A stretch of DNA of 64,000 nt from Nanobdellota archaeon. GTDB taxonomy: Archaea > Nanobdellota > Nanobdellia > Woesearchaeales > DATDXC01. A model generated the notes under the pieces. That model was given only the letters and a program-made list of their open reading frames with translations, searched no databases and was not told the origin of the DNA. Positions 31,501 through 55,248 of the stretch are shown in pieces. The stretch is from assembly GCA_043818675.1 (NCBI GenBank), contig JBDRFR010000069.1, positions 14,877-78,876 of the forward strand, given 5' to 3'. Both the position numbers and the translations under genes were made by a program. How positions within the stretch are numbered: the stretch's first letter is position 1; every line of letters starts with the position of its first letter.

Positions 31501-34500
31501 GGCGGATTGGCAGAATTCAATGTCTACCCGACAAACATACTATACAGCTCTTACACAACAAAAGGCGACAGTATCCATTGTACGATAACAGCCATGTTAG
31601 ACGATATTAATGCAACCACGTACACAACAAAATCCAGGTACAGGATTTTTACTAATCAAAGCGATTTCATAGGCGGAACATTAGTTAACACCTCTATTAC
31701 TCACCAGCCCGGCAATATCACGCTATACCCTAACTCAACAGGCAACTATTCAAACACAACAGGATACTACATTTCACCTTCCATTGATTTCCAAAGATTA
31801 TCACCCTCCATCTCGACGATAAGCTGGAACGGTTCAGATACAGGCATCAGTATCCAGACAAGGGTTTCAGCTGACAACAGCACCTGGTCAGAATGGCAAG
31901 GGCCGCAATTGACAAACAGCCCAAATATTTTGGCGCTTATGCATTTCAATGACGCTAACACCACAGTGAACAACGACCTGCCATTGTCAGGCAATTTCAG
32001 TTATAAACAGGCCAAATGGAACAATGGATTATTGATAAATCACACAAGCTATATTAGTTACAATACAAGCTTGTTGAACTATTCAACAGGCACGATCGCT
32101 TTCTGGCTAAAGCCTCTTGCCAATTTACAAGAAGGTTACCTGTTCGACACAGCATACAATGTAAGCATCAACCGAATCTCCTTATACCTTGAAAACTCTG
32201 TTTTATTCTTTAGGATCAGGGACAGTAATGACCGCGACCATATTGTTAACACTACGGTTGACTTCCAGGAAAATGTATGGCAGCATTTAGCAGTAACCTG
32301 GAACTTAACTAACATGTCAATTTACGTAAACAATACTTTGTTCACATCAAACATCAGGTCAAATGAGATCAAAAATGATAGTAACACTCTTCTTTTAGAA
32401 AGATTTGAAGCAGGATCAAAAATACAGAATAATGGCGGCATTTTACAGGGCAGCCTGGTTGATGGTAAATACAGTAATGGGTTTTTATCAGCAAATACAG
32501 GAGACGTTATCAATTATTCCACAACAAACCTTAACATCACAAAAGGCACTATTGAATTCTGGCTGAAACTTCAAAACTCTTTAGACTCAAAAACTTACTA
32601 TTTGTTTGACACTGCGTATAATGACAGTATTGACAGGTTATCAATCTATTTAGAAAATTCAAAACTTAATTTCCTGATAAGGGATAAAGATGACCGCGAC
32701 CATTTGATTAACGCAAGCGTTAATTTCCAGGATGACATTTGGTATTCAATAGCTGCTGCATGGAACCAAACTAATATGAGCTTATACATCAATAATAGTT
32801 ATCAGGCAGGTGATTATAGAAGCACTGAAGTAGCTAACGATTCTGATACCTTACTGATAGAAAGGTTTGAATCAATCAATAAGATAGACACTAACGGCGG
32901 CAGTTTTAAAGGCAGCCTTACCGATGGCAAACATGATAAAGGCTTCTTATCAGCTATAAGCGGAGACGTAATCAATTATTCCACAACAAACCTTAACATC
33001 ACAAAAGGCACTATTGAGTTCTGGCTAAAACTTCAAAACACCTTAGATTCAAAAACTTACTATTTATTTGATACTGCTTATAATGACAGTATTGAAAGGC
33101 TGTCAATCTACCTGGAAAACTCAAAACTTAATTTCCTGATAAGGGACAAGGACGACCGTGACCATTTGATCAACGTAAGTGCAGATTTCCAGGCAGGTGT
33201 TTGGTATTCAATAGCTGCTGCATGGAACCAGACAAACATGAGCTTATACATAAATAACAGCTATCAGGCAGGCGATTATAAAAGTACTGAGATAAAAAAT
33301 GACACAAGCACATTGCTCTTAGAAAGGTTTGAATCAATAGCTAAAATAACAGCTAATAACGGTTATGTTTCAAGCGGCGTAAATCTCACCCAGGGCAGGC
33401 ACAGTAAAGGAATGATCACCGACAGACCAGGCGAATTTGTAAATTATTCTAGTGATTATTTCAACCGCACCAAAGGCACTATCGAATTCTGGATTAAACC
33501 TGTTTGGCCAGGAACTGCTGATAAAACTGATTATTTCTTTGACCAGGGCAGCGGTTCACAAGCAAACAGGATGTTTATTTCAAAAGGCAGTGATCCGGCA
33601 AGCGAATTAAGCATATCAAACTCAAGCATAGTATTTGCCATTTTTGACGGTGCAGGAACATCTCATTATGTAAGTTCTGATATTAGTTCATGGCAATCTT
33701 CGGAATGGCACTCAGTTGCAGCAGTTTACAATTTCACTGGATCATCTTCCTACATGGCTTTATATGTTGACAACGTTTTGCAGGACAACACCCCGACAAA
33801 TCCAGGCGCCTTCACACTCAGCGCAAAATCCATTTTATACATTGGTTCAAACAGGCTAAAGGATCATTATTCAAATGCCACAATTGACTCTTTAAGGATT
33901 TCAAACAACCCAAGGTCAAACTTCAGCTATATTTACGCTGACGATACTATTCCGATTAGTAATAAAGCAGCCTTACAGCATATTGGCAATAGTTATAATT
34001 TAAGTTATCCAGCTAATGCAACAATTGACTCCTTTAGAATATCAAACATACAAAGAACAGGCTTTAGCTATATCTACGCAGATACAATACCATTGCTTAA
34101 CAAAGCAGCCTTATTGCATATTGGCAATAGTTACAATCTAAGTTATCCAGCTAATGCAACTATTGACTCTTTAAGGATATCAAACACACAAAGAACAGAC
34201 TTTAGCTATATTTACCCAGGTGACACACTTCCGATGTCTTCCAAAGCAAAAGAGTTTTTCATAGGCACAAACTACACAAAACACCAGCAGATAAACTCCA
34301 CTATTGATGAGTTTGTAATATACAACAGTATTCAAGATATAGGCGACATTTATCAGACATCGCATACAGCTTTCCAGGGCACTGTTCCCACGCCGCACCT
34401 TAGGTTTTTACAGTACAAGATTAACTTCCAAACAAACTTCACTAACCAAACACCAATCCTTGAAAAGCTGACTATTCAGCAGGATGATTTCCCTATCATT

Positions 34501-37500
34501 ATCAAAAACAAGGCTCCGACAGCCCCTTCCTTATTAACCCCTGCTGATAATAATTGGCTTACGACAGCCACACCTCTGCTAAACTGGACAGAAAGTATCG
34601 ACGTTGACAACGATATTGTTTATTATAATTTATTGATTGACGATGATAGTGATTTCTTAACACCCTATATTGAAAAGGCCAATCCCGGCTTTAATTTAAC
34701 TGACAGTAATTATACAATTAACAGCTCAGAAGCACTCGAGCAATCAACCTATTATTGGAAAGTTAGGGCATTTGATTTGGACAACGCTGATCAGCCCGGC
34801 GAATCAAACGCATCGTCGTTTTCCCAGACTTTCACACTAAGCGTTGATTCTGTTTATCCTAAGATATTCAATGAATCCAAAAGTCCTGATGGCTTTATCT
34901 ATGAGATTTACAACGTAACATTTTTCGTTAACGTATCAGAGTCAAACATTTTGAACGTGACATTAGAAGCTAACTGGTCAAGTGCAATGGTTAATTATAC
35001 AGTCAATAATTATACTGGCACAGGTTCTAACAGGAGGTATAATTATACTGTAAGTAGCACAGAGCTTAGTGCACTTGAGCTTGTCATGTGGCGGTTCTAT
35101 GTAACAGACTCTTCCGGCTCGGTCAATAGAACCCCTCAGCATAACTTCACTGTCCAGCCGGCTGTTGATCTGAACTTATCAGGCATAACACCGCCTGATA
35201 TTATCTATTCCAATCTGACCAGGTTTAATGTTACAATTTTTAACCAAGGCGACGGTGCCGCATCGAATATTAATGTAAGCTGCTATGTTAATGATACGTT
35301 CATTGACAGTTACATTATATCAACAATTGACGGCTTATCCCAAAACAGTTCATATTGCAGCTATACAGCTGTTTTTGGCACAAGTTTCATTCTCGATGCA
35401 ACTGTTGACCCAGCTAACACTATCCCTGAATCAAACGAACTTAATAATGATGGCAACATATCATTTAGTGTCCTGCAAAAAACAGGCATGTCTGCTTATG
35501 ACCAGGAAGACGACGATGAAGATAACGCAGGATGGTTATCTGAGCACGAGACTGCCCCGCTGCAGATGACCTACTACTTTGTAAATTATACAAGCGATCT
35601 GGACAACTCTGCCATTTCTGACGGCATTTGCACAATCTACCTGAACAATTCCGCGATACAGATGACTTATAATTCCAGCGCAGGGTTATATTATTACAAC
35701 CGTTCCTGGGCATTTGCCGGAAGCAACGACTGGAACATAACCTGCAAAAAACCCTTGTATGAAAACAAGACCTATATTTCAGAGACCTATGTCAGGATCT
35801 TATTAAGAAACGCATCAGCTATCGGTTTAACTACACTAACAAGGCACCTAAACCCAGCCGATCCTGTTAATATAACAGTTACTGTCCCAAATCAGAACAT
35901 TCTCTTAAACCTTAGCAGTGTCTGGACAGAGATCATAAAGCCTGACGGGTATAAAGAAAACCTATCGATGAGTGGCGAGCCTTCTGGTGGAATTTACAAT
36001 TTAACATTCAGGAACACTTCCCTGGTCGGAACATACACTGCTAAGTTCTTTGCCAATTTAACTGACGGGTTCAAAGGTGTTGAAACAGCTCGGACTAATT
36101 TCTCTGTTGAAAATATAAGTATGCCGATCTATCTGAACAAATCCAGGATTAATGTTAGCGAACATGTAAAGATATACGGAAAAGCAAGAAGATTTAACAA
36201 CAGCAACTATTTCAATATAACAGGCACAAACCTGTCAATCTGGCAGGATGGTATATTTAACGCAACTGTTATAACTAATTCCACTGCTGATTTTAATAAG
36301 ACAATCATATTTAAGATAGCAGGCACAAGGACTATCAAAGTTAACATTACATCAGCTGAAGGCATATACGGCAATAACCAAACTTCATTAATTGTCAATA
36401 TTCCCCTGCGAAACATTTCAGCAAGAGGTATTACAACAAACACCCGATATGTTAATTATAATGAGACTGTAAATTTATCTATCACTATTCCCACTGAAAA
36501 CATTGGCTCTGCAGATCTTAGCAGTGTTTGGGCAGAAATTACAAAACCCGATTCAAGAAAAGTCAACATAAGCTTATCAGGATCTAGTCAAGGTGGTGTT
36601 TGGAATACCACATTTACTAATAATACATTGCTTGGTACATATACTGTCAGGTATTATGCAAACTTATCAGACGGATTCCGGTACGTAGAACAGGCTATAA
36701 CAAACTATTCGGTGGAGAATATCTCGTTATCGATATATCTTAACAAATCCGTAATCAACAACACTGAAACTATAAAAGTTTACGGAAAAGCCAGACGGCA
36801 CAACGGTTCCAGCTACTTCAATATAACCGGAACAACAATATATATTTGGCAGGATAATGTTTCAAACGGTTCCATAATTACGAATACATCTGGAGATTAT
36901 AACACCACAATTTCCTCATATGTTGCAGGCATAAGGCACCTAAAAGTCAATATTACAACACAAGAAGGATTATACAGTTACAATCTAACAACTTTAAATA
37001 TTAGCATACCGCTTCGTAATAAACAGGCATTAGGTCTTACTACTGATACTAACATGATCCATTACGATGAAGAAGTCAACATCTCAATCAATATACCCTT
37101 GGAATACATAGGAAACGATGAATTAGATAGTATCTGGGCAGAAATTACAAAACCTGACTCCAGAAAAATTAACATAAGCTTTTCAGGATTGAGCACTGGC
37201 GGTATTTGGAACGCATCATTTGATAACACCACGGTTTTAGGCAGATATACTATAAGATATTATGCTAATTTATCGAGTGGTTTTTCTATAACTGAAACAT
37301 CGATTACAAATTTCACCGCAGCTAACATTTCTATTTCGCTTGTGCTAAGCAGGTCAATCCTAAACACAACAAACAACTTAACAGTCAGTGGTAAAGCAAT
37401 AATCTTCAATGGGTCAGTGGCTCAAAATGTAACAGACAGAAACGTTACAGTATTTTTGGGAGGTATACTAGTATCTAACGCAACAACTGACTCTTATGGC

Positions 37501-40500
37501 AATTATAATACAACTTTTTCAGTGCCTACGACAAACCTGGGTGCTGTAATTATAAAAGTTAACATCACTTCAGCTGACAACCTCTATGCATCAAACCAGT
37601 CCGCAGTCACTTTATGGGCTGAAACCATTTTAAATTACACAGCGTCTGCTGATTATTCTGGCACTGTAACAAACTTCACTGTTACAGCCAATTTTGTGCG
37701 TACAGATACAAACACATCTGTCCCCGGAACCTTCAATATTACTATACACAATAACAGCCTAAGATATTACAGGGACTGTAACGGAACTTTATGTATTAAT
37801 TCATTCCTTGTGCCTGGCAGCGTTATCTGGGGTAATTACAGCTTTAATATAACAGCGACTAACATATCTGGTTATTATCATAATGCTTCTGTAAATTTTA
37901 CAGCAATGTTAGAATATAAGAGCACCACTGCTTCGGTCCTTAACTCTAAAAACAAGACTATCATTGATTTTGCAACAGGTTCAACTTATGTATACTATCA
38001 TAACATTACAATTGTCAATTTAGGCAATGCAACAATGAACAATGCTTACGCTCTTGCTGACTTATCCGATCTGGATTTTGATTCTATTGTTAACACCTCA
38101 AGCTGCGGCAATATTCCCCCTAAAAGCAGCTGCAACCAGTCGTTTGCCTTAACTCTTAATTCAAACTCCGAACCTGACGTAAAACTTATCATTTGGAGGG
38201 TAAACCACACCAATAACGACGGCTCGTACTCAAAATCTTCAAATTCTGTCAGGATGACCACCACAATTGTTGGCGCAGTCATAATGGACACATCCACTGG
38301 TTTGATTGACCAGGACATAGAACATGGCCAGTCAGTTAGTTCAGGTTTTGCAATTCAAAGTAATGGTAATCTGGTCCTAAGCAGTGTTGCTGTAGAGCTT
38401 ATAAACGACACTATGCCAAGCTCTTGGTTTAGCTTCACCGGTTCTACGAGTTTTGGCACGATCCCGGCAGGCCAGACAGGCACGGTTACATACTCAATTA
38501 CTATCCCAGAACATTACGCTCCTGGCACATATAATGCAACCATAAACGTAACTGCATCAAACCATAATGAAACATACATTAAGGTCAACATTACCGTTCC
38601 TCTAAATGGCACATGGATTATCAGCGGGGATATCGGTAAGACCACAAATTTCACCCAGAATCTTAATGGCACTGTTGGCAATCTTACGCTCAGCAATCTG
38701 GGCAATATTGAGATGAATTTCAGCATATCCTACTTGCCTGGCGGAAGCAGGCTATACACTGATTTTGGCAGTGATTTATTCCAGGAAAACCAAGCTGGGT
38801 ACAATCCCACCTGGCTGAATATACCAAAAAATACAAGCAGGAATCTCAGCATTTTCCAGAAAAGCTGGTCAAGCAGCTTATCAGATGTTGGCATTAACAT
38901 TTCCATCATTAATTTAAGCGGCACCCCTACAAACAGGAGCATCTATATGGTGTTTAATATTAAAGATGATCCACCTGTTGTTGAAGCCATGTTTTACCTT
39001 GTAAACAATTCCGTCCAGAATTACACTGAATTTAACAAGTCTATTACCATAAAAGCAACTGTAACTGACGACATTGATATTGAACATACCACAAGCAACT
39101 CATATTTCAATGTTAGCTACTATGGAGATTATACAGTTATCAACGCTTCATTTACCGAGTACAGGTACGATAGCGGTTATAAGGAGATAAATTTCACAGC
39201 TAACTTCACACCCACAACGATAGGAGCCCACAATGTCACATTAACTGTCAAAGACAGCGCTTCCCAGATTACAAGATATTCAGGCTACAATTTCACCTCA
39301 ATCGGCAACACTTCCGTCAATATTACATTTAATCTATCAGTCGCCCAAATAACCCAAATAACCCAAAGATTAAGCAAGAATATTACAGTTAATATCACAA
39401 TCAAAAATACTGGATTTGTAAAAGCATATTATAACAATTTAACATGGATTTTACCTTCGGGGTGGTCGATTTATCCAACATTTGACTATTTATCAAGCAT
39501 ATCTTCCGGTGCATCAAAATCAAAGCTTTTCAACTTATCAATCCCTATAGCTACCAGTCCAGGATTATATACAATAACGGCAATCACTAACTGGACAAAT
39601 CCGATAAAAACAAGAAATAGCACTACTGAAACCTTCAGGATAAATGTAACATCCAATAAAATCCTGAATTTAACCATTAACAATAAGACAATAACAATAA
39701 ATCATAGCTCTCAGCGGTCGTATGTGTTTGGTGTGAATGCTACAGGAAATGATAATTTGACCAATGTAAATATAAGTTGTATATCCGGTGAGGTATGCAA
39801 TTTCACAATATCCTATAATAATTCCTTATTTAACGTTAGTGCTGGTTCAGTTATTTATGTAAACACTACAATTACTGTCCCGGAATATCAGGCTCCGGCC
39901 AACTACACCGGAATCTTCAATGTTTCCACAAACAGCTCAAACTCAAAGACTATAAATTTAACAGTGGAAGTGCCTGCTGACGAAACATGGAATATTAGCA
40001 TAGCCACTATTTCAAAAAGTGTCGGCGCTTTAAACTCAGGTATTGTCAGCAAATTCAACATAACAAACAATGGCAACATTATGATAGGTTTCAAGCTTAA
40101 CACCACGAACAACACTATTATTAGTCTTAACGCAACCAGTATAACCGTCCAAAAAAACAGTACAAGTGAAGTATTGATAAGTTACAGCTCACCACAACAG
40201 GCAGCTGATTATATAATCGTTATTATGATCACTAATAATTCTCTGTCGCAAAGGCAGCGCAATTTAACAATTAATCTAACTGTACTTCAGTTCCAGGTAA
40301 ACATAACTTATCCATTAAATATATCTCCGTTAACTAACATTACAGCAAACCAAAACATAACAATAAACGCCACAGCCTATTATATCAATGAAAGCTTGTC
40401 TGAAAATGTGACATGGGCTGTTAAATTTAATGATAGTGTATGCAATGTTTACAATTATACGTACATTAACAGCGTATGGCAGGTCAGGTGCACAACCCCT

Positions 40501-43500
40501 GACATAGACGACGGCAAATACTATTATCTTAAGCTCACTGCTAATTATACAACCTTAAACAATGCATTGACTGACACTGAACCCAACGCTATTTTATACC
40601 GTGACGTCACCGCTCCAACCATCATTTCAAAGAATAAGAAGAACATTGCGCCAGGTAGTGACGTGAACCTAACATTAAACATTACTGACAATGTTAATGT
40701 TTCAACTGTCATTGCTCAGCTGACCTATCCAAATATCACAGGCAATATATCCACCATAATTAATTATACAGCCTCCTATACAAACGGATTATATATTATC
40801 AGCTTATATGATTTGGTCCATATAGGCGATTATGATATTACATACTATATTAATGATACAACAGGCAATTCCCTAACCGACACAGACAATTTCGAGGTTT
40901 ATTTGATAAAACCCAGATTTTCCGGAACCATATCTGACTATCAGGGTAATGGTGTGCCATCTTTTTGGGAATTTTATAGGTCAAACACCTCTACCCTTCT
41001 CACGAATATAACGACTAACTCAACAGGAAGATACAATAGCGGAGATATTCATAACCGGACTTATGACCTTAGAATTAGCGCTCTTGGCCATAAAATAATC
41101 ATTAAAAATCTGAACTTCACAACAATTAAAAATGACGCAATAGACCTTGATTTGATTATTGGCACTGACATTGACACAATTATTACTAACTACAGGCCGT
41201 TAAAAGGTATCGGTGTTAATACAACCTTTAATGTAAGCTATGTCAACTTCACGATTAATTATAGCGGCACAAGTCCTGTATCAGAAACAGGCATAAAGAT
41301 TTTTAGATGTTCAAACTGGTCTTATAAGGTCAGAATTTGCGATAACACCTGGACAGAATTAAACAGCACTGTTTATGTTAGCAGGGATATAGTAATCGCT
41401 TCTTCTTCAGGATTTTCTGCATATATAGCTGCCGAGCTAAAATGCGGCAACGGCATATGCGAAGAGATATACGGTGAAACTTCAGCAAACTGCGCAGCTG
41501 ACTGCATAACAGCCCAGGGTCCAGCTTCAATTTCTGTTAGCAGCGGTGGTGGCGGTGGTGGCGGTGGCGGAGGCAGCGGACTGTCAAAAGAAGACTTAAG
41601 AGCTGAATTAGAAGCATTAAACTTGCTAAACATTACTGATAAGATTGAAGATATTGTCAAAGCCACAAAAAAACTGGCAGGTGTAGAAATGGCGACCACC
41701 TCGATATATAAGGAGCTTTTCCCAAAAGAAGACGCCTCAGCAAGGATTAGGATGCGAAACACTCTCGATACCAACATCAGATTAAACACCAAAGTTGAAG
41801 GCGCTGTAAAAGATTTTGTATTCTTTGAAAATTATGCAGTAACTCTTTCAGGCGGTGAAGAAAAAGACATTATAGTAAGAATAACCATCCCGCAGTTTAC
41901 AAAACCTGGATCATACGATGGTGACATTATTTTAATGCGTGACAATGAAGAGGTCAGGATCCCGACGACCATTAGAGTTTTACAGGAAGAAGGAAAACTT
42001 TTAGACGTCAAAATCCAGCCGTTAGTAGACTCAATCTCGCCTGGCGAAACTCTGCTTCTTCGAACAGACTTGATAAACCTTGGTAAGACTAAACGTGTGG
42101 ATGTCCAGTTTAAGCTGCAATTAACCGACCCCAGGACAGGTGAAATACTAAAAGAAACAGAAGAGGCATTTGCAATCGAGACATCACTAACAACAACAAA
42201 AGAACTTGAGATTCCAAAAGAGATCAAATTAGGCAAATATTTAGTTCAGGGCACTGCATATTATAGCAGTCTTGAAGACCGTAATCAGGAAGCAGTATCT
42301 ATTGCAACCATAAACATCCAGCAGCCATTTTTAGAAAGGGAATTTTTAGGCATTAAGAATGAAAGTTATATGTTCGGATTTATTATAGCTTTAGCATTGA
42401 TTGCACTGTTTATTTTCTACACATATAAGCAGAAAAAGAAGAAACGGTACATTAAGGTAATAGATCTTAAAACTTTGCCAAAACCCGGAAAGAATTCTGG
42501 ATTTATCGGTAAGATAGCAGAAACAGGCATTAGGACTTTCATTGACATTAACAAGCTTCAGACACATACACTTATAGCTGGCGCAACAGGCAGCGGTAAA
42601 ACAATAGCTATCCAGGACATTATCGAAGAGTCTCTTTTAAAAGGCATCAGTGTGATAGTCTTTGATCCTACTGCTCAATGGACCGGCTTTTTAAGAAAGT
42701 GTAAACAGCCGTCTATGTTAAAACGCTACAGTTATTTTGACATGAAGCCAAAAGACGCAAAAGCTTTCAAAGGCAACATCAGGACCATTACAAATCCGCG
42801 TGAGATTATTGAAATTAAGCAATTCATGGCTTCAGGTGAGATCACAATCTTTAACACAAGCAATCTCGAGCCAAAAGAGATGGACATTGTAGTAGCATCG
42901 ACTGTCCAGCAAATATTCAAGGCAAACCTAGAGGAAAGCCCTGACCTAAAAACTCTGATAGTCTATGACGAAGTTCACCGGCTGCTTCCAAAATTCGGCG
43001 GCAGCGGCAAAGGCTTTATACAGGTTGAAAGAGGCGTTAGAGAATTCAGGAAATGGGGTGTTGGCATTGTATTGATAAGCCAGGTGCTCAGCGACTTCAT
43101 CGGTGAGATCAAAGCTAATATAGGCACAGAGATCCAGTTAAGGACCCGTTACGAAAACGATCTCGAAAGGATCAGCATGAAATACGGTGAAGATATTCAA
43201 AAATCTATTGTAAAGGCCGCTGTAGGAACAGGTATGATCGTCAATGCTGAATATAACCATGGCCGCCCATATTTCGTCAGTTTCCGGCCAATACTTCATT
43301 CAATAACAAAAATAAATGACAAAGACCTTGCTAGTTATACACAATACGCAAAACGCACAGAGGATATTACTTACCAGCTTGAACAATTAAAACTTTTAAA
43401 TGTTGACATATTTGATTTAGAATTAGAGCTGAAGTTGTCCGATAGTAAAATTCGTTCCGGCCAGTTTGAAATGGTCGAGATTTACCTAAAATCTCTTGAG

Positions 43501-43857: not shown

Positions 43858-44919
43858 ATGAAACAAAACATGGTCCCGCCGGATATTGAACAGTCCTCAG
43901 ATGAGGAAGTAATTGAAGAAGAGTCTGTTGAAGAAAGGGCCGATATATCAAAAGAAGTAGCATTTGAAAAATTAAAAACCCAGCTTGAATCATTAAACCA
44001 GGTAAGGGAAACCAATAATGAGCGATTTTCAAGGATTAGTGAGCAAATAGGTGAAATTCGCAGCATGGTTATTGAAAACGAGAAGAATATGCGTGATGTT
44101 AGTATTAAAGCCACAATGGCCTCTGATTCTGTTAAAGAAGTAAAACCAGAAATTTTAGGGACCCAGGTAAGAAAAATCGACATGAAGGTTGAAACATTAA
44201 AACAAAAAATTGAGGCTAAAAACGTAATGGACAATATGATCATGCAGGAGCTTAAAGAACTGAGAGCAAAAATTAACCTTTTCAAAGGAACTGACGCAGT
44301 TTTAAGCCTTAACGAAGAAGTAAAAAATGAACTAATCAATATCTCCAAAATTAAAAATTCTGTTGAGATTCATGCAGACAAGGTTGAACAGGTTTTCGTC
44401 CATATTCAAAAGAACTTTGTAGAATTCGAAAAATTAAAAAGCCAGAATGAAAATATGCTGGCTGTAAGTTCAGCATTGCAAAAACAAGTAAATGGCCTTC
44501 AGACTCAATTAAAAACCATATCTACAAAAGATGATTTAAGCAGGTTTCGCAAAACCATAAACGATAACCTTAGCTCTATTAATAAATTCTCAAAAAATTT
44601 AAGAAAAAATAAGCAGCTGATAACTTTGCTAAAAAAGATAGAATTTCGTCTTCAAAGCATGGTTTTTGATAATAAAAAAAAGATCGGCGAATTAAAAGAG
44701 GAAGACGGAACAATAAAAAGCAGCATAGCAGAAATTGACTGTCATCTTAGCACTTTGTCAAAAAAAATAAAAAGCGCTACTCCAAAAAATCATATTAAGC
44801 ATGTCAAAAAACACTTCATGCTCCATAAGAAAAAATCAGGGATCATATTAAAAACTCTTGAAAAAATTGAAAATAAATTTTTTAGATGGTCAAAAAAATG
44901 TCAAAAGAAGAAGTTATAA
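43858..44919 (+). CDS. coiled-coil protein (353 aa)
   Basis: Acidic N-terminus, then heptad-rich K/E/L/Q sequence throughout. Starts 43 nt after the giant ORF stop. Confidence 0.5.
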   Translation: MKQNMVPPDIEQSSDEEVIEEESVEERADISKEVAFEKLKTQLESLNQVRETNNERFSRISEQIGEIRSMVIENEKNMRDVSIKATMASDSVKEVKPEILGTQVRKIDMKVETLKQKIEAKNVMDNMIMQELKELRAKINLFKGTDAVLSLNEEVKNELINISKIKNSVEIHADKVEQVFVHIQKNFVEFEKLKSQNENMLAVSSALQKQVNGLQTQLKTISTKDDLSRFRKTINDNLSSINKFSKNLRKNKQLITLLKKIEFRLQSMVFDNKKKIGELKEEDGTIKSSIAEIDCHLSTLSKKIKSATPKNHIKHVKKHFMLHKKKSGIILKTLEKIENKFFRWSKKCQKKKL

Positions 44920-45770
44920 AAAACGCTGTTGAGAAGTTAAACAAAGACTACGAAAAAGCCAGAATAGAAGAAAATAAGGCACAAGCCATGCTTGCAAACT
45001 ACAAAAAACTGCACGATGCAGAAAAAGCTATATTAAAAAGCAAAAATGACCAGCTTCAGGCTGTAAAGCTTAAAGCTGACAAAATCAGAGAAGAGCTGAA
45101 AATCGCAGAAGAAGACTTCGAAGAAGAAAAACTGCGCTTAATAGATATTGAAAATGCAGAGCAAAAAGCAGGCCAGGATATTAAAACAAAAAATAAGCAG
45201 ACACTGGAGATTGCAGAGCATATAAAAGACATTATTGAGGAAGAAAATAGCGTTAAGGCTGCAAAAAATAAATATAATAAGATCCGGCAATTATATGACA
45301 ATGCAAAAATGGAGCTTGAAAACGCAAAAAATAAAGCAGAAGCAGAGATTAAGAAAACACTTAAAAGCGAAGGCGTGCAAAGGGTTACTAAAGCTCATTT
45401 AGAAAAAGCCAAAACATTTATTGACCAAAATTATATATCTAAAGATTTAGAACAGGAAATAAAAACTGACGAAATGATCAGAAAAGACCTTGAAAAAGAA
45501 GAGCTTCTCGATAAAGAGATCCAGGTTGACGAAAAAATAATTGAAGAAGATACCAATTTAGAAGACCTTCAAAAACTGAACAAGGATTTAGAGCAGGAAA
45601 TAAAAGAAAAAAAGAAAGAAGAGAAGGTTATCGACAAAGACCTGAACCAAAAAAAGGAAGAAGGATCTTTAGCCAAAAAATTTCTTGGCAAGCTAAAACA
45701 AAAAGTCCTGCCCAGTAAAGAAGACGATTTAGAAGATCTTGAAAAAAGGTTTAAGGATTTGGATGATTAA
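44886..45770 (+). CDS. Lys/Glu-rich coiled-coil protein (294 aa)
   Basis: Low-complexity K/E-rich helical sequence. Overlaps the previous gene by 34 nt. Confidence 0.45.
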   Translation: MVKKMSKEEVIKNAVEKLNKDYEKARIEENKAQAMLANYKKLHDAEKAILKSKNDQLQAVKLKADKIREELKIAEEDFEEEKLRLIDIENAEQKAGQDIKTKNKQTLEIAEHIKDIIEEENSVKAAKNKYNKIRQLYDNAKMELENAKNKAEAEIKKTLKSEGVQRVTKAHLEKAKTFIDQNYISKDLEQEIKTDEMIRKDLEKEELLDKEIQVDEKIIEEDTNLEDLQKLNKDLEQEIKEKKKEEKVIDKDLNQKKEEGSLAKKFLGKLKQKVLPSKEDDLEDLEKRFKDLDD

Positions 45771-46971
45771 ATTTCATAAGCCATGCTACTTCTTCCTTAT
45801 CAAGGTCTGCATATCGGGTTATTGCATCTCGCATATTTTTGTTTTTAAACATTATTTTATAAAATTCGATATCTTTAACTATATCTTTGCTTGAACAATG
45901 AGTTTTAGCAGCTATTTTTTGTGCAATGGCTTTTTTTTTCATGCTTTTTTGCTTTGCCCACCATAATTTTAGCAGCCTGCCAGTAGGTTTATATGATACA
46001 AATTTTTTATATTTTTCATCTTTGGATACAGCAATACCTGCAGTTAATAATGCATTAACATAGACTAAAAACCGCCAATACTGCCATCTTTTGATTCTTC
46101 TTTTGAAGATATCTGCCTTTGAAAGCTTATCATACGCCCTATAAAGATCATTTGGTTTGATATATTCCAATGGAAGATTTTTATCAATCCAAAGGAACTG
46201 CTGGTCAATATCTTCTTTAACATTATCAAACGCTGTGATTGCAAGTTTTGGGTCTGTGGATTTAAACACTTTCAAAAGCGCATTCAGTATAGACTCTTCT
46301 TTATTTCTATCAGCAAGTTGGTCTAAATTTTTTTTTGTCAGCTGATGGGTAGTTTCGGATAATGTCTGCAGATCGTTTATTGCAGCTCTCGCATCGCCTC
46401 CGGCTCTTCTTGCAAGCATTTTCAGCGCACCTGTATCGTAGCATATTTTTTCTGTTTCGCAGATAAACCTAAGAATAGTGGCAATTTCAATATAGTTTAA
46501 CGGCTTAAGTTCCACTGTTATGCTCCTTTTTCTTAGGCTGTTAAATTTTAAATCCCATGGATTTTGTGCTGTAAGGATTATTGGAAAAGTAGTTTTATCT
46601 ATTAGCTTAGCAATCGTAGCAATCCCACCCCTATCTTTATTGCCGGAAAGGCCTTCAATTTCATCAACAAGGATAATTTTGCTTTTTGAAAAAAGGCTGT
46701 ACTGGTTTATTGCAGACCCCACTTTTTGCAGTATCTGATCTTTATTTCGGTAATCACTTGCATTGACTTCAATTATCTCAGTTTCAAAGTCGCTTGCAAG
46801 CGCATGCACAAGACTGGTTTTGCCTGTCCCGGAAAATCCATGCAATAACAGCGCCTTCTTTTTCTGTATTGAAAAATTCTTGACAAAATCTGAGACTTGC
46901 GATACTGCTTCTGGTTGGCCAATAACTTCTGCAAGCTTTGTTGGACAGTATTTTTTTGTAAACGGTGTCAT
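45751..46971 (-). CDS. rfcL: replication factor C subunit (AAA+ clamp loader; length suggests large subunit)
   Basis: 'KYCPTKLAEVIGQ' (RFC box II). Walker A 'LLHGFSGTGKTS'. 'EVNASDYRNKD' (NASD-RG box). 'ILVDEIEGL' (Walker B). 'ILTAQNPW' (sensor). Confidence 0.75.
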   Translation of the reverse strand: MTPFTKKYCPTKLAEVIGQPEAVSQVSDFVKNFSIQKKKALLLHGFSGTGKTSLVHALASDFETEIIEVNASDYRNKDQILQKVGSAINQYSLFSKSKIILVDEIEGLSGNKDRGGIATIAKLIDKTTFPIILTAQNPWDLKFNSLRKRSITVELKPLNYIEIATILRFICETEKICYDTGALKMLARRAGGDARAAINDLQTLSETTHQLTKKNLDQLADRNKEESILNALLKVFKSTDPKLAITAFDNVKEDIDQQFLWIDKNLPLEYIKPNDLYRAYDKLSKADIFKRRIKRWQYWRFLVYVNALLTAGIAVSKDEKYKKFVSYKPTGRLLKLWWAKQKSMKKKAIAQKIAAKTHCSSKDIVKDIEFYKIMFKNKNMRDAITRYADLDKEEVAWLMKFNHPNP

Positions 46972-47044
46972 ACATTTGCAAAGCCATATTTATTTAATAA
47001 TTTTATGGTAAGGTTTATAAAAGGGTTTATACTCAGATGTTATC

Positions 47045-48142
47045 ATGTCACTAACAAGCATCCAAAAGATGAAAATAAAGAAGTTCATCAAAGAATTAGG
47101 TGGTTATAAAGGCAGGCATACAGAACTTGTTTCTGTTTATATTCCAAAAGGCTACGATATTATCAAAATTATCCAGCACCTTGATCAGGAAAAAGGCACA
47201 GCAACTAACATTAAATCCACTGCTACAAGAAAAAACGTTATTGCTTCTTTGGAAAAGATGACCCAGCATCTAAGATTATACAAAAAAACACCTGAAAATG
47301 GCCTTGCTGTTTTCTCGGGCAATGTATCAGAAAGAATAGGCCAGGAAGATTACAAGGTATGGAGCATTGAGCCTCCGCTTCCGATTAACACAAGAATCTA
47401 TAGATGTGACAAGGATTTTGTAATAGATATATTAGAAGACATGCTGGAAACAAAAGAAGTTTACGGCCTTGTAGTAATGGACAGAAGAGACGCAAACGTT
47501 GCCTACCTTAAAGGAAAAACTATCGTGCCTCTGTTAAAAACTCATTCTGAAGTTCCAGGCAAGTTTAAAGCAGGCGGCCAGAGTGCGGCCCGTTTTGCGC
47601 GGCTAAGGGAAGGCGCAGCAAAGGATCATTACAAAAAAGTGGCAGAACATGTAAAAAATAAATTTCTTGGAAATGAAAACCTTAAAGGTATAATTGTTGG
47701 CGGCCCGGGCCCTACTAAGTATGACTTTGTGGAAGGCAATTATATAACTTCTGAAGTAAAAAAAAAAATTATAGGTATAAAGGATTTAAGCTACACAGGC
47801 GATTTTGGTCTGCAGGAACTTGTCGATAAAAGCCAGGACATTCTGGCTCAGGAAGAAATTGCAGGCGAAAAAGCTATTATGGCTAAATTTTTTAATATGC
47901 TCGCAAAAAAGCCTGGGATGGTAAGTTACGGTGAAAAAGAAGTAATGACAAATTTAAAATCCGGCACTGTTAATATTCTGCTTCTTTCAGAGGATTTAGA
48001 TGATGAGACAATTGAAAATTTTGAAAAAGAAGCTGAAGTTGTTGGGTCGTCTGTTAACATAATTTCCACTGAAACCCGTGAAGGGGTTCAGTTAAAAGAT
48101 ATTGGCAAAGTCGCAGCAATTTTAAGGTATGAAGTTCAATAA
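47045..48142 (+). CDS. prf1: peptide chain release factor aRF1
   Basis: 'NIKS' codon-recognition motif ('TATNIKSTATRKNV'). 'GGQ' peptidyl-hydrolase motif ('KFKAGGQSAARFARLRE'). Confidence 0.9.
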   Translation: MSLTSIQKMKIKKFIKELGGYKGRHTELVSVYIPKGYDIIKIIQHLDQEKGTATNIKSTATRKNVIASLEKMTQHLRLYKKTPENGLAVFSGNVSERIGQEDYKVWSIEPPLPINTRIYRCDKDFVIDILEDMLETKEVYGLVVMDRRDANVAYLKGKTIVPLLKTHSEVPGKFKAGGQSAARFARLREGAAKDHYKKVAEHVKNKFLGNENLKGIIVGGPGPTKYDFVEGNYITSEVKKKIIGIKDLSYTGDFGLQELVDKSQDILAQEEIAGEKAIMAKFFNMLAKKPGMVSYGEKEVMTNLKSGTVNILLLSEDLDDETIENFEKEAEVVGSSVNIISTETREGVQLKDIGKVAAILRYEVQ

Positions 48143-49729: not shown

Positions 49730-50911
49730 ATGGATTTACAATTAATATCAGCAATAATTTTTTCAGTATGTTTGGCTTTTTTTCTTGTATGGAAAAGAAA
49801 AAATTTAGCTGTTCAAAAAATTTTTTTCCCGGTTTTATATTTTGTCATGTATCGCACAAAAATCGGCCTTAAATTAATGGATACTATCTCTAAAAAGTAT
49901 GGAAAATTACTAAAATATTTAGGATATATTGGCATTTTTATTGGATTTTGTGGAATGGTCTTCTTATGTTTTACTTTATCAAAAAATCTGGTGATTTTAT
50001 TAACAAAACCAGAGGCAGCATCTGCTGTTGGCTTGGTTCTTCCTTTCAAGGTCAAAGGAGCATTCTTTGTGCCTTTTTTTTACTGGATAATCTCAATTTT
50101 TGTGCTTGCCGTAGTGCACGAATTTTCACATGGTGTCGTAGCCAGGTATTACGGCTTAAAAATCAAATCAAGCGGTCTTGCATTTTTATGCTTAGTCCTT
50201 CCTGTAATTCCGGCGGCGTTTGTTGAGCCCGACGAAAAAAAAATGGCAAAGCTTTCCACAAAAAAGCAGTTAAGCATTTTTGCAGCTGGCCCATTTTCAA
50301 ACATTATTCTTGCATTTATTGTATTACTATTGTTTAACTTCACACTAGCGCCATTTCTTCAGTCAATGATGTACGAAGACGGTATCAAAATTACCGGTTA
50401 TATTGAAGACAAAACTTATCCTGCGCAGGAAGCAGGCATTGAAATTGGTGAAGTAATAAAAGAAATTAATGGAGCAGAATTCAAAACACTAGACGATTTT
50501 TCAGCATTAATCCAAAATGAAAAGCCAGGTGATCAAATCCAGTTAACAACCAATATCAAAACTTATGATATTACTCTAACAGAAAATCCTGAAGATGAAA
50601 AAAAGGCATATTTGGGTGTTTATTTAATACAAAACTATGAAAAAAAAGACTGGGCAAGAAAAGGTATAGCGTTTTATATTAGTGTATTGACTACCTGGCT
50701 GGGCGGGCTTTTTTATTGGCTTTTTGTTTTAAACCTTGGAATCGGGTTATTCAATCTTATCCCTATTGGTCCGATTGACGGAGGCAGGATGCTGCATGCT
50801 GTATTGTTAAAATATTTCTCTAAGGACAGGGCCCAAAAAATCTGGAAATATACAGGGACTTTCTTTTTCCTTTTAGTTCTTACAAATGTTATGTTTGGTT
50901 TTATTCGATAA
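49730..50911 (+). CDS. site-2 protease family (M50) intramembrane metalloprotease with PDZ domain
   Basis: Multiple TM segments. 'VVHEFSHGVVARYYG' (HExxH). Second Zn-ligand region 'NLIPIGPIDGGRMLH'. PDZ-like segment 'GIKITGYIEDKTYPAQEAGIEIGEVIKEING'. Confidence 0.8.
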   Translation: MDLQLISAIIFSVCLAFFLVWKRKNLAVQKIFFPVLYFVMYRTKIGLKLMDTISKKYGKLLKYLGYIGIFIGFCGMVFLCFTLSKNLVILLTKPEAASAVGLVLPFKVKGAFFVPFFYWIISIFVLAVVHEFSHGVVARYYGLKIKSSGLAFLCLVLPVIPAAFVEPDEKKMAKLSTKKQLSIFAAGPFSNIILAFIVLLLFNFTLAPFLQSMMYEDGIKITGYIEDKTYPAQEAGIEIGEVIKEINGAEFKTLDDFSALIQNEKPGDQIQLTTNIKTYDITLTENPEDEKKAYLGVYLIQNYEKKDWARKGIAFYISVLTTWLGGLFYWLFVLNLGIGLFNLIPIGPIDGGRMLHAVLLKYFSKDRAQKIWKYTGTFFFLLVLTNVMFGFIR

Positions 50912-50922
50912 GGTTTTAGGAT

Positions 50923-51762
50923 ATGCAAAACATCAAGTCCGAATCAAAAATTGCATGGAAATTATTTAAAGACATTTTGATGCTTCCCGTTAATCTTCTT
51001 CTTCTGGTGTTTGGTAAAAAAAGCATATCAGATGTTTTAAGGCCAGTATCCGACATTTTCAGATTTATATTTGAAGCAAAGGTTACCATTTGGCTGGTCA
51101 TATTAAATATTATTATATATTTTGGAGTTACTTTCCTGTTAATCACTGGCATTATTGAAGAGTCTTTTATCGATTTGTATTTTATTGGGACAACCAGGGG
51201 TTTTTTGAACCTGGATTTCCCGCCTTTAATTGGTTCTTGGTTTTTCCACGCATCAGTCTTTCATTTGTTTGGAAATATGTTATTTTTGTTTATATTAGGA
51301 AGGGTTGTTGAAAAAGAGCTGGGCGGGCCTAAAACTCTGCTTATTTATTTTGGTGCGGCTATTATTTCCACGGTTGCAGACAATTTGGTCCATATTTTCA
51401 TCATACCTATTAAAGATTATGCAGTAGTCGGCGCATCTGGCGCTATTTCAGGTTTAGGCGGTGCAGCATTACTGCTTAGCCCTTTTTACTTAACTTATCT
51501 TGTTGTTGGAATACCATTGCCTATTATTTTTGTGGTTTTGCTTCAGATATACACTGATATTACAGGTGTTTTAAATCCAACATCAAACATTGGCCATATT
51601 GCACATCTAACAGGCTATTTATCTGTTGCAATTACTATGTTTCTTCTTAGCAAAAATGATAGAAATAAAATGAAAAAAGGACTGTTTATATGTATAATTA
51701 CTGTTATAGCGTCTATCTTAGTATTTATATTTGCAAATAGATTTATTGGCCTGCAGATTTAA
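50923..51762 (+). CDS. rhomboid-family intramembrane serine protease
   Basis: Catalytic 'GASGAISGL' (GxSG) and 'HIAHLTGY' (catalytic His) lie in TM helices. 6-7 predicted TM segments. Confidence 0.8.
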   Translation: MQNIKSESKIAWKLFKDILMLPVNLLLLVFGKKSISDVLRPVSDIFRFIFEAKVTIWLVILNIIIYFGVTFLLITGIIEESFIDLYFIGTTRGFLNLDFPPLIGSWFFHASVFHLFGNMLFLFILGRVVEKELGGPKTLLIYFGAAIISTVADNLVHIFIIPIKDYAVVGASGAISGLGGAALLLSPFYLTYLVVGIPLPIIFVVLLQIYTDITGVLNPTSNIGHIAHLTGYLSVAITMFLLSKNDRNKMKKGLFICIITVIASILVFIFANRFIGLQI

Positions 51763-51785: not shown

Positions 51786-52526
51786 CTACGTTAATTCTAC
51801 ATAAAAGTAATAAACAGTTGACGCATCATCATCTCCGTTATCTGCAACCAGCATCTGAAAATCCCATATATTTCCGTCAAACCCTACTGTATTTTGGCTG
51901 ACTTCTGTTGCATATATCACTGTATTCTGATTATATTCTGTAAGTATTGTTTCATTAAAATAACTGGTCTGCGCCCCATTATTATCATACGTATTTGTTG
52001 AACGGCAGTTTAGGAGCTCCCTTGTACCGATTGTAATATTGCTGTATCCTCTGAAAGTCTCATCTATTCCGTCACTATCAGAGCTCGCCATGCCGTACAT
52101 TGACTCAAGCGTTGTATGATTGATTCCCTGTGTTCCAATAGAGCCATTGCCGCTAAAGTTTACACAATTAACATTGCCCCAATCTACTACCGTATTGTTT
52201 GCAGCATATATTTCACCGACCGGAGAAAAGCTTGAACCACCTGTCCAATCAAACATTGTATTGCCGCTTGCATCACCAAGGACAACTTTTCCGGAGATAT
52301 TACCATAGTATCCCTGCCATCTTTTTGTAACAATTGTAGTATTAATTGTAAGTTGCGTTACATTGCCTGCCTGTGCTCCAAGAGCCTGCGGATCCCCTGT
52401 TATATTAGTTCTGCTCGTAGTAACATTTTCAATAGAAGTAGGGCCATATGGATTGGCTAGAGTGATAGGTATTAAAATCGCTGCCACTAATAAAATTATT
52501 GCAATTCTTTTCATTGTTGTTTTCAT
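51786..52526 (-). CDS. secreted ~245-aa protein, paralog 4 of a tandem array
   Basis: Signal peptide 'MKTTMKRIAIILLVAAILIPITLA'. Conserved core 'RWQGYYGNISGKVVLGDASGNTMFDWTGGSSFSPVGEIYAANNTVVDWG.V.CVNFSGNGS.GTQGINHTTLESMYGM...DGIDETF...NCRSTNTYDNNGAQTSYFNETILTE...TVIYATEV.Q...GFDGN.WDFQMLVADNGDD.ASTVYYFYVEL'. Confidence 0.75.
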   Translation of the reverse strand: MKTTMKRIAIILLVAAILIPITLANPYGPTSIENVTTSRTNITGDPQALGAQAGNVTQLTINTTIVTKRWQGYYGNISGKVVLGDASGNTMFDWTGGSSFSPVGEIYAANNTVVDWGNVNCVNFSGNGSIGTQGINHTTLESMYGMASSDSDGIDETFRGYSNITIGTRELLNCRSTNTYDNNGAQTSYFNETILTEYNQNTVIYATEVSQNTVGFDGNIWDFQMLVADNGDDDASTVYYFYVELT

Positions 52527-52722: not shown

Positions 52723-53460
52723 TTATGCAAGTTCAACATAAAAGTAATATGCTGTCGCAAGTCCGTCACTGCCGTCATCAGCGACGATCATTTGAAAATC
52801 ATAGCTATTGCCATCAAAACCAGTTGCATCCTGGTCAACTTCTGTTGCAAAAATTACAGTCCCTTGAGATCTTTCTGTTAAAAGAGTCTCATTAAAGTAA
52901 GTGCTTTGAGCGCCATTATTATCGTATGTATTTGTTGCATGGCAATTCTGAAGCAGTGTTCCGGCTATTGTAATGTTATTCAAAGTACTAAACGTTTCAT
53001 CAATACCATCATTATCAGAACTTACCATACCAAACATAGATTCAAGTGCTGTTTGATTGATTCCTTGTGTTCCCACAGAACCGTTTCCGCTAAAATTAAC
53101 ACAGATAACATCACCCCAGTCCACAATTGTGTTGTTTGCAGCATAAATTTCTCCAATTGGTGAAAAGCTTGAATCAGCAGTCCAATCATACATTGTATTG
53201 CCGCTTGCATCACCTAAGACCACTCTTCCAGAAATATTACCAAAATAACCTTGCCAATTGCCGGTTGCTTGTGAGATATTAATCTCAAGTTTAGTATTAT
53301 TCCCTCCGTACGCGCCCAGACCCTGCGGAGCTCCCGCACTCGTATTGGTTTTATAAGTAGTTACATTTTCAATGGTTGTTGGCCCCCACGGTGCTGCTGT
53401 TACAACTGAACATAATACACTAATCACTAATAATCCTATGAGTAATATTCTCGTTGTCAT
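52723..53460 (-). CDS. secreted ~245-aa protein, paralog 3
   Basis: Signal peptide. Same conserved core, ending 'AYYFYVELA'. GGAGGAAT Shine-Dalgarno-like motif upstream. T-rich run after the stop. Confidence 0.75.
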   Translation of the reverse strand: MTTRILLIGLLVISVLCSVVTAAPWGPTTIENVTTYKTNTSAGAPQGLGAYGGNNTKLEINISQATGNWQGYFGNISGRVVLGDASGNTMYDWTADSSFSPIGEIYAANNTIVDWGDVICVNFSGNGSVGTQGINQTALESMFGMVSSDNDGIDETFSTLNNITIAGTLLQNCHATNTYDNNGAQSTYFNETLLTERSQGTVIFATEVDQDATGFDGNSYDFQMIVADDGSDGLATAYYFYVELA

Positions 53461-55120: not shown

Positions 55121-55248
55121 TTCCTCCTTTTTTAAATTTTTAATAATGTGTAAGCAAAAAAAAAGGGATTCAAGGCAGAAATCAAAAAGACGTGCGAGGT
55201 GTTTTAGATGTTCCCCTTGTTCTCCCAATTAATATAATACTCTAAATT

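Follow-up and report, generated by a model that had tools for sequence, protein, structure and literature searches.

A giant SPEARE-type surface protein of a Nanobdellota archaeon with a predicted HerA-type ATPase behind a single transmembrane helix

The stretch of DNA analysed here (the window, 64,000 nucleotides of contig JBDRFR010000069.1 from a Nanobdellota archaeon) contains a single unbroken open reading frame (ORF) at 7519..43815 on the forward strand, which starts with TTG and encodes a protein of 12,098 residues, with a computed mass of ~1.34 MDa and a pI of ~4.5. This protein, hereafter the giant, consists of a very long variable ectodomain, a glycine hinge and a C-terminal base module, in which two β-sandwich domains, a single transmembrane (TM) helix, a P-loop ATPase and a coiled-coil tail follow one another. 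It almost certainly belongs to the SPEARE family of DPANN archaea. The parts of the giant gene are as follows.

7519..43815, + strand: giant SPEARE-type gene, a single uninterrupted ORF with its stop codon at 43813-43815
7519..7641, + strand: N-terminal signal peptide or membrane anchor (hydropathy peak at aa 16-34, H=2.72)
7642..41442, + strand: variable giant ectodomain of ~11,300 aa (Pfam domains; counts of sequons and cysteines)
12847..14244, + strand: 466-aa Hint/intein-like insertion inside one laminin-G (LamG) repeat (comparison with an intact repeat of the same protein)
13084..13341, 13338..13643 and 13644..13862, - strand: three small toxin-antitoxin-like ORFs antisense to the insertion (weak Pfam matches)
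41443..41505, + strand: cysteine module CGNGICEE...CAADC at the end of the variable ectodomain (sequence)
41545..41574, + strand: G10 hinge, aa 11343-11352, which divides the variable ectodomain from the conserved base module
41575..42372, + strand: base-module ectodomain, a short helical linker and two β-sandwich domains (AlphaFold2 (AF2) model; weak Pfam matches to DUF4625 and NPCBM_assoc)
42373..42456, + strand: single TM helix, then the polybasic KQKKKKRYIK, read as a stop-transfer, inside-positive stretch (hydropathy, charge counts)
42472..43284, + strand: predicted HerA-type P-loop ATPase core (Pfam, PDB profile search, AF2 with Foldseek, invariant columns)
43318..43812, + strand: cytoplasmic helical or coiled-coil tail, rich in K and E (AF2 helices 582-745 of the base-module model)

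An earlier reading of this DNA from its sequence only had described one continuous frame running through the cysteine module, the G10 hinge, the β-sandwiches, the TM helix, the ATPase and the K/E-rich tail. Every motif that it quoted could be located within the last 1,004 residues, in the order stated. The motif CGNGICEE spans aa 11309-11316 (nt 41443-41466), and the TM helix FGFIIALALIALFIFYTY occupies aa 11619-11636 (nt 42373-42426), directly followed by KQKKKKRYIK (42427-42456). In the ATPase, the Walker A motif GATGSGKT lies at 42580-42603, VFDPTAQW at 42658-42681, the Walker B motif VYDEVHRLLP at 42961-42990, and the arginine finger/sensor region REFRKWG..ISQ, REFRKWGVGIVLISQVLSDF, at 43039-43098. 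The ~270-aa stretch after G10 is predicted to fold into two all-β domains, as the AF2 model of the base module has all-β blocks at model residues ~37-135 and ~143-248 (mean predicted local distance difference test (pLDDT) score 83.5), which supports the two β-sandwich domains proposed earlier. This ectodomain is homologous to that of standalone forms of ~775 aa. No identical gene product is on record. The internal DNA repeats of the giant gene are at most 90% identical to each other, so a gross assembly collapse or an artefact of length is unlikely.

A 19-residue hydropathy scan found only two hydrophobic peaks in all 12,098 residues, at aa 16-34 and aa 11617-11636. Within 15 residues of the C-terminal TM segment, two basic and three acidic residues lie on its N-terminal side, compared to eight basic and one acidic on its C-terminal side. 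The segment between the two hydrophobic peaks has 580 N-X-S/T sequons (5.0 per 100 aa) and 93 cysteines, compared to two sequons (0.43 per 100 aa) and one cysteine after the TM helix. Together, the two hydrophobic segments, the charge asymmetry and the asymmetry of sequons and cysteines place the ATPase in the cytoplasm, as had been claimed, and everything before the TM helix outside the cell.

Profile and structure searches agreed that the ATPase is a member of the HerA/FtsK superfamily, with HerA models scoring best. Two Pfam models matched above their cut-offs, the DUF87/HerA central domain (1e-11, 45.8 bits against a cut-off of 23.2) and HerA_C (1.1e-9). TrwB_AAD_bind barely reached its cut-off (23.9 against 20.5 bits, 2.3e-5), FtsK_SpoIIIE scored 23.8 bits against 24 over the Walker A region only, and the VirB4-type AAA_10 stayed below, at 22.6 against 27.5 bits; ResIII (PF04851) also matched, at 8.8e-8. 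The equivalog models of NCBIfam for CedD, HerA, VirB4, TraC and TraD reached 20-34 bits against cut-offs of 366-1,177, which means a relation at the superfamily level only (CedD 33.8 against 600 bits; HerA equivalogs 23-25 against 800-970; VirB4_plasma 27 against 590; TraC 22 against 567). Among the PADLOC models, HerA matched at 2.5e-17 and mad8 at 3.8e-17. A search of the PDB with a profile of 33 family members gave Sulfolobus HerA (PDB 4d2i) as the best match, followed by anti-phage HerAs, YjgR and DotL. Consistently, the AF2 model of the last 505 residues (pLDDT 86.9) is most similar to 4d2i in Foldseek, at 3e-11, followed by anti-phage HerAs, the STIV2 packaging ATPase B204, TcpA, EccC and FtsK, though the identity to solved HerAs in the structural alignments is only ~13-18%. 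The motor is thus HerA-like rather than VirB4-like, since HerA is the best match both by sequence and by fold. The Pfam and NCBIfam matches of the ATPase region include no model of HAS-barrel type, and between the TM helix and the ATPase core the AF2 model has ~18 residues with one short β-hairpin. The giant also lacks Pfam matches to the VirB4 N-terminal domain (PF03135), and no match to the γ domain of FtsK was found in it.

Four residues are essential to Sulfolobus HerA, namely K154, D176, E356 and R381, the last being the trans-acting arginine finger (PMC4351679). These residues align by hidden Markov model with the lysine of GATGSGKT, the aspartate of VFDPTAQW, the glutamate of VYDEVH and the second arginine of REFRKWG, respectively, and all four columns are invariant in two family alignments, of 33 and 30 members. 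The Walker motifs are thus not degenerate in homologs, and the protein looks like an active, catalytically intact HerA-type ASCE ATPase. The structure models of the ATPase are of monomers only; the conserved trans-acting arginine finger lends indirect support to the ATPase working as a ring.

The sequence-only reading had taken the tethering of such an ATPase to a giant surface protein for an architecture not yet described. It is in fact that of the SPEARE proteins, first published in 2019 and re-annotated in 2023, of which the giant is a very large further member. Hamm et al. 2019 (PMC6642349) gave this name to very long proteins of Nanohaloarchaeota, of up to 8,553 aa, which are mostly extracytoplasmic, with laminin-G and other adhesion domains and a TM segment near the C-terminus. 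They interpreted a conserved intracellular region as a type III restriction enzyme and reported similar sequences in Woese-, Aenigm- and Micrarchaeota and in Altiarchaeales. Examples are NAR1_1133 of Ca. Nanohaloarchaeum antarcticus (5,998 aa) and proteins of Ca. Nanopetramus SG9 of up to 8,553 aa (PMC6642349, PMC10266531), to which Reva et al. 2023 (PMC10266531) added SVXNc_0300 (9,409 aa) and BNXNv_0298 (8,880 aa). The latter authors re-interpreted the intracellular domain as a cytosol-facing VirB4/TraG-like ATPase followed by a coiled coil, proposed a “straw” resembling a type IV secretion system (T4SS), and considered neither a protease nor a restriction domain real in the type SPEARE proteins. 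BLASTP of the product of 41401-43812 against the last 662 residues of the Nha. antarcticus SPEARE protein (PMC6642349, SI Fig. S18) gave 41% identity over 615 aa, with E=2e-151. Moreover, the Nha. antarcticus protein has a G10 run at the equivalent place (DTGGGGGGGGGGIGD versus SSGGGGGGGGGGSGL). No paper that mentions both DPANN and DUF87 was found, and the “dark matter” paper of Makarova et al. 2014, checked for an earlier description of the system, proved not relevant.

The fusion of this module to giant surface proteins recurs in related archaeal genomes, as the earlier reading had suggested looking for. A homolog search with the TM helix and ATPase returned 634 proteins (47-68% identity among the 120 matches listed), the named ones mostly from metagenome-assembled genomes (MAGs) labelled Woese-, Pace-, Nano-, Aenigm- or Altiarchaeota. 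A frequent form, of ~765-790 aa, has its own signal peptide, a two-domain ectodomain of ~250 aa, the TM helix, the ATPase and the tail. The module after the G10 hinge is a complete copy of this widespread DPANN protein. A genome scan with a single protein as query came back empty, and an alignment-based query gave 20 genome loci, in which the length of the ATPase-bearing ORF extends from ~690-840 aa over ~1,270-1,340 aa to complete ORFs of 2,955 aa in an Aenigmatarchaeota locus and 3,671 aa in a Woesearchaeota locus. Another two are open-ended, at least 3,724 and at least 3,787 aa long, as they run beyond the fetched 10-kb flank. When 1.84 billion cluster representatives were searched exhaustively, 1,287 relatives passed E<=1e-3, of which 371 also passed E<=1e-30; the MAGs with the best matches carry the labels Woese-, Pace-, Nano-, Aenigm-, Micr- and Altiarchaeota. 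Among the best 150 of the 1,287 representatives (50%-identity clusters), 103 exceed 1,000 aa, 48 exceed 2,000, 30 exceed 3,000 and four exceed 5,000, up to a maximum of 6,253 aa, and the ATPase match lies close to the C-terminus in nearly all of them. The giant is longer than any of these and than the SPEARE-type proteins of Hamm 2019 and Reva 2023 (maximum 9,409 aa); archaeal proteins above 10,000 aa have been reported to be rare (bioRxiv 10.1101/2023.11.21.568195). A run of at least five glycines lies 239-291 aa before the TM helix in 29 of the 49 members longer than 1,500 aa, at the position that coincides with the start of the short forms. Similarity to the giant's module or to the short paralog in the window (see below) did not separate long from short members, as long ectodomains occur in both groups, so that a single origin cannot be claimed.

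The genes around the giant gene include a partner gene and a second, two-gene version of the system.

2878..5133, + strand: upstream 751-aa secreted or anchored protein with a Cys-rich domain (one N-terminal hydrophobic peak)
43858..44919, + strand: partner gene, encoding a 353-aa cytoplasmic coiled-coil protein without TM helix (homologs downstream in related loci)
56097..58421, - strand: short standalone base-module paralog of 774 aa (own signal peptide, two β-sandwiches, TM helix, ATPase, tail and an extra C-terminal domain)
58418..62446, - strand: 1,342-aa PKD surface protein with a C-terminal TM helix and a cytoplasmic coiled coil (4-nt overlap with the start of the 774-aa paralog)
62443..62748, - strand: 101-aa protein heading the split operon (clusters with same-position ORFs of the related loci L005, L008 and L013)

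Homologs of the partner (22-40% identity, ~150-330 aa) lie directly downstream of the ATPase gene, on the same strand, in 13 of the 20 DPANN loci. Clustering of the ORFs of the 20 loci gave no recurrent neighbour besides surface proteins and this coiled-coil partner. The partner matches no known family, as the Pfam scans of 12 homologs and the PDB profile search returned coiled-coil noise (hemagglutinin HA2, BLOC1_2, apolipoprotein) and PADLOC gave only weak matches to the LmuB coiled coil. An exact-product look-up of the gene found no contig. The partner's end overlaps by 34 nt with a K/E-rich coiled-coil ORF of 294 aa at 44886..45770 (+), which has no Pfam or PADLOC match and, by ORF clustering, no counterpart in the related loci. 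No type IV secretion family, including CagE_TrbE_VirB (PF03135), turned up in our Pfam scans, which comprised 19 of the window's 21 ORFs of 150 aa or more, a further, smaller ORF and, from five related loci, seven neighbour ORFs.

The 774-aa paralog shares 52% identity over 421 aa with the module of the giant. By sequence, the minus-strand pair of surface-protein and ATPase genes is a “split” version of the giant system in the same window. In the related loci, the ATPase gene is often preceded by a large surface-protein gene that touches or overlaps its start. When fused and adjacent forms occur side by side, as here, the surface protein and the ATPase module are classically taken to be functionally linked. 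In addition, the N-termini of the proteins encoded at 2878..5133 and 58418..62446 share a Cys-rich domain of ~135 aa (CTRW..CYG..CCNFIG..FYLNYG), with 49% identity over 132 aa. In both cases a SPEARE-type ATPase gene lies downstream. Pfam gave no match to the domain, and BLASTP did not find it in the other 20 loci. The 101-aa protein at the head of the split operon has no Pfam match and reads as ribbon-helix-helix-like from sequence only.

The forms of ~775 aa have an extra C-terminal domain (LKLKNG..V....EL.D....MD...F..HV....N.F.DW), which is absent from the giant and makes up the C-terminal ~80 aa of the 774-aa paralog (56097..56400, -). DUF5752 (PF19027) is named for two homologs in a precomputed Pfam list, where its position is not given, and a separate gene between the ATPase gene and the coiled-coil partner in locus L004 (5937-7193) encodes CBS domains and a weak DUF5752 match (1.2e-4, below the cut-off); the ORFs at that place in L005, L008 and L013 gave no Pfam match. 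Downstream of the short paralog, four tandem paralogs of ~246-286 aa (54368..55228, 53589..54332, 52723..53460 and 51786..52526, all -) have a Sec-type signal peptide, are rich in sequons, end in YYFYVEL(A/T) and lack Pfam matches; locus L020 has two further copies (667-1371 and 1456-2268). The family may consist of surface-fibre or coat subunits. Between the upstream surface-protein gene and the giant gene lies a toxin-antitoxin-like pair of HEPN and minimal nucleotidyltransferase (Polbeta/NTP_transf_2) genes (5201..5704 and 5701..6303, +). There is also a 310-aa ORF (6293..7225, +), which has an N-terminal Cys-rich Zn-ribbon-like segment (CKCC...CKDC) and no Pfam match; its C-terminal GHIDIL...IFDYKP resembles a PD-(D/E)xK nuclease motif when the residues are read by eye. 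The housekeeping neighbours at 45751..48142 and 49730..51762, namely an AAA ATPase (-), aRF1 (eRF1 domains 1-3), an M50 site-2 protease with a PDZ domain and a rhomboid protease, favour a chromosomal location in an archaeon over a mobile element. The 64 kb gave no match to tRNAs or Rfam RNAs.

The variable ectodomain, scanned against Pfam in three chunks that overlap by 500 aa, consists of Laminin_G_3/ConA-like lectin repeats, FG-GAP β-propellers, CARDB, NPCBM_assoc, Gmad2 and MG2-like Ig domains. Laminin_G_3 matched in every chunk (E = 1.3e-113, 4.5e-81 and 1.4e-39), with 4-5 stretches listed for each, some of which may be counted twice owing to the overlap. No peptidase family appeared in the whole-protein Pfam scans at E<=1e-4 (first two chunks) or E<=1e-3 (third), and no serine-protease or toxin domain was detected in the ectodomain. 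One LamG repeat is broken exactly between NNVTYDF and SGNSNNGT by the insertion, which begins with APGH-CYDNETEILT...LLVSEKH, similar to the N-terminus of Hint domains and inteins, and ends without the canonical HN. Hint_2 (3.2e-4, below the cut-off) appeared only with the isolated N-terminal piece; a 500-aa chunk around the insertion gave no Pfam match. The middle of the insertion reads as junk, rich in S, N, F and L, on the plus strand, opposite the three minus-strand ORFs, whose Pfam matches are all below the cut-offs (ParE_toxin, ParE/RelE-like, 0.031; DUF2683, 2.5e-4; RHH_1, 0.02). It looks like a degenerate intein-like element with an antisense toxin-antitoxin cassette, across which the frame of the giant has been kept open.

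To obtain lipids, nucleotides and amino acids, DPANN archaea depend on host contact. SPEARE-type proteins are the most conspicuous candidate machinery for this exchange, and the family's function is relevant to the passage of material between DPANN symbionts and hosts. Conservation of the motor is strong, with 41% identity between a nanohaloarchaeon and this low-GC archaeon, and, being HerA-like with an intact arginine finger, it argues for a ring. By analogy to related motors, we propose, with a probability of roughly 0.4, that the base modules form a hexameric polymer-translocating ring at the site of host contact. The N-terminal Sec-type signal almost certainly directs the heavily N-glycosylatable, lectin/propeller/Ig-rich ectodomain of ~11,600 aa to the outside, and in the proposed model its giant lectin/Ig part would find and hold the host surface. 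The base modules would assemble via the ATPase into a hexameric ring beneath the membrane, so that one complex at the contact site holds six TM helices and as many ectodomains, and probably the downstream coiled-coil protein as well. Powered by ATP hydrolysis, a polymer would then pass through the ring and cross the symbiont membrane. This polymer would most likely be a nucleic acid, because the nearest characterised relatives, HerA, FtsK, viral packaging ATPases and coupling proteins, mostly handle DNA, with TraB and TcpA as further analogues, and because DPANN archaea probably scavenge nucleotides. Export of the giant itself by the ATPase, which the sequence-only reading had also considered, is unlikely, as the ATPase is translated last, the N-terminal signal is of Sec type, and the module also occurs with an ectodomain of only ~250 aa in the paralogs of ~775 aa.

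Several points weigh against such a translocating ring. No substrate, pore or oligomer was observed; no nuclease, NurA or DNA-binding partner was found among the scanned window ORFs, and no conserved multi-pass membrane partner lies beside the ATPase gene in the 20 loci. Six single TM helices may form too small a ring for double-stranded DNA. Homology alone does not fix the substrate, and HerA-type rings also scaffold defence effectors. Finally, in Nha. antarcticus, ectodomain peptides were found in gel fractions above 315 kDa and TM and cytoplasmic peptides only below 315 kDa (PMC6642349), so the mature protein may be cleaved and the tether perhaps not covalent.

These gel fractions also underlie the possibility that the giant is cleaved at or near the glycine hinge after export, leaving the base module as a separate membrane protein of ~750 aa in association with a shed or re-bound ectodomain. 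The hinge, a possible processing site, recurs exactly at the start of the standalone forms, and in the split locus the surface protein and the base module each have a gene of their own; however, the authors of the proteomic study allowed for a preparation artefact, and neither a protease site nor an autoprocessing domain was recognised at the hinge. We regard cleavage as possible but somewhat doubtful. As a cleaved base module would still be correctly inserted, the sequence does not decide the matter, which concerns the tether only and is compatible with any functional model. A more radical view of the tether, that a missed stop, a frameshift or a chimeric assembly has joined an adhesin gene to an ATPase gene of ~775 aa, might draw on the standalone genes that often follow, and overlap or abut, a large surface-protein gene, and on the contig not being found in other assemblies. 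It is nevertheless extremely unlikely. The hinge junction lacks the signal peptide carried by every standalone form, so the base module could not be inserted correctly as a separate product, which argues for a genuine fusion; the same in-frame junction with a poly-glycine hinge occurs in the proteomics-detected SPEARE protein (PMC6642349) and in dozens of long homologs from independent assemblies, which excludes a one-off frameshift; and the repeats within the gene have diverged. Almost as improbable is a HerA of anti-virus defence or DNA repair, related to Sir2-HerA, DUF4297-HerA or HerA-NurA. The PADLOC matches to HerA and mad8 and the closest solved structures point that way, but the HerA equivalogs of NCBIfam score far below their cut-offs, such systems offer no parallel to a membrane anchor behind a giant adhesin, and no Sir2, DUF4297, NurA, Mre11 or Rad50 gene was found among the scanned window ORFs. 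We rejected this reading for its missing partners and its missing HAS barrel, as in the model only ~18 residues lie between the TM helix and the core.

Two other functional models start from the same motor. According to the published proposal of a T4SS-like secretion “straw” (PMC10266531), the ATPase would be of VirB4/TraG type and the giant a conduit for the injection of effectors into the host. The next gene of the nanohaloarchaeal proteins indeed encodes a VirB4 homolog with PF03135 (PMC10266531), and there are the weak matches to TrwB_AAD_bind, AAA_10, VirB4_plasma, TraC and TraD and to the structures of DotL and TcpA. However, HerA models and structures outscore those of VirB4 and type IV coupling proteins in every search, no T4SS family was found among the Pfam-scanned ORFs and no recurrent T4SS neighbour in the 20 loci, and no candidate effector was identified, which makes this model unlikely for the giant. 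Alternatively, the ATPase ring and the coiled coils could serve as an organising or mechanical anchor that clusters adhesins into hexamers and links them to a cytoplasmic coiled-coil lattice, with ATP used to remodel or tension the attachment site or to signal engagement. The coiled-coil tail of the ATPase, the conserved coiled-coil partner gene, the cytoplasmic coiled coil of the split-locus surface protein and the lack of a membrane channel partner in the 20 loci are all in line with an anchor, and in the Sir2-HerA and DUF4297-HerA complexes listed by Foldseek, the HerA hexamer is the platform on which the complex assembles. On the other hand, FtsK, TraB, the type IV coupling proteins and EssC, the characterised membrane-anchored members of the superfamily, are translocases, and we think it improbable that the giant's motor is an anchor instead. 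The very high conservation of the catalytic site fits either translocation or anchoring. Returning to the translocating ring, its furthest extension would make the base module and the coiled-coil partner the core of a trans-envelope machine that occurs throughout DPANN, is related neither to type IV secretion nor to Ced, and pumps host nucleic acid or another polymer inward at the contact site, with an exchangeable ectodomain of 0 to 11,600 aa setting the host specificity. We offer this as a speculation that is rather unlikely as a whole.

Compared to the known systems, the giant shares with HerA (HerA-NurA, PDB 4d2i and 9x1l, and the anti-phage HerAs) the RecA-like core, the Walker A lysine, the aspartate after Walker A, the Walker B glutamate and the trans-acting arginine finger. 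It differs in having a TM helix in place of the N-terminal HAS-barrel domain and in its C-terminal coiled coil, and no NurA, Sir2 or DUF4297 partner is present among the scanned window ORFs. FtsK/SpoIIIE, Streptomyces TraB, TrwB/VirD4/TcpA/DotL, EssC/EccC and the crenarchaeal Ced ATPases likewise have a ring ATPase of the superfamily in the cytoplasm, behind an N-terminal membrane anchor. These membrane-anchored FtsK/HerA-superfamily translocases, among which TcpA, EccC and FtsK are structural matches and DotL a profile match, are the working analogy for polymer translocation. However, they have 2-4 TM helices and little or no ectodomain, whereas the family of the giant has one TM helix behind 250 to 11,600 aa. 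Individually, the giant is set apart from FtsK/SpoIIIE by a motor model below the cut-off, its one TM helix and the missing γ domain match, from Ced by the low CedD score, and from VirB4 and T4SS by AAA_10 below the cut-off and the lack of PF03135 and of any T4SS family in the scanned ORFs.

The closest likeness is to the SPEARE proteins, which have the same parts in the same order: a signal, a giant laminin-G ectodomain, a poly-glycine hinge, two β-sandwiches, a single TM helix, a P-loop ATPase and a coiled coil. The homology of the C-terminal part, the long extracytoplasmic part with a single C-terminal TM helix and the laminin-G domains are all found in the giant. No peptidase family reached the thresholds of the Pfam scans in it, and the “restriction” part corresponds to a ResIII-like match on the P-loop ATPase; the spurious match to ResIII (PF04851) that is the source of the “RE” in the name thus recurs on the giant. 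These two features do not disqualify the giant, because both domains have been argued not to be real in the type proteins (PMC10266531). The giant differs from the described SPEARE proteins in its length of 12,098 aa and its origin from a low-GC archaeon, with the nearest relatives of its ATPase in Woesearchaeota/Nanoarchaeota-type MAGs, in an ectodomain of LamG/FG-GAP super-repeats compared to ~75 Ig domains, in its Hint-like insertion, and in a next gene that encodes a coiled-coil protein rather than a VirB4 homolog. Altogether, the giant adds to the family its size, a HerA-like motor, the recurring glycine hinge, a conserved coiled-coil partner gene and a split paralogous locus, a natural version of the system in which a surface-protein gene and a short ATPase gene stand near the fused giant in the same window.

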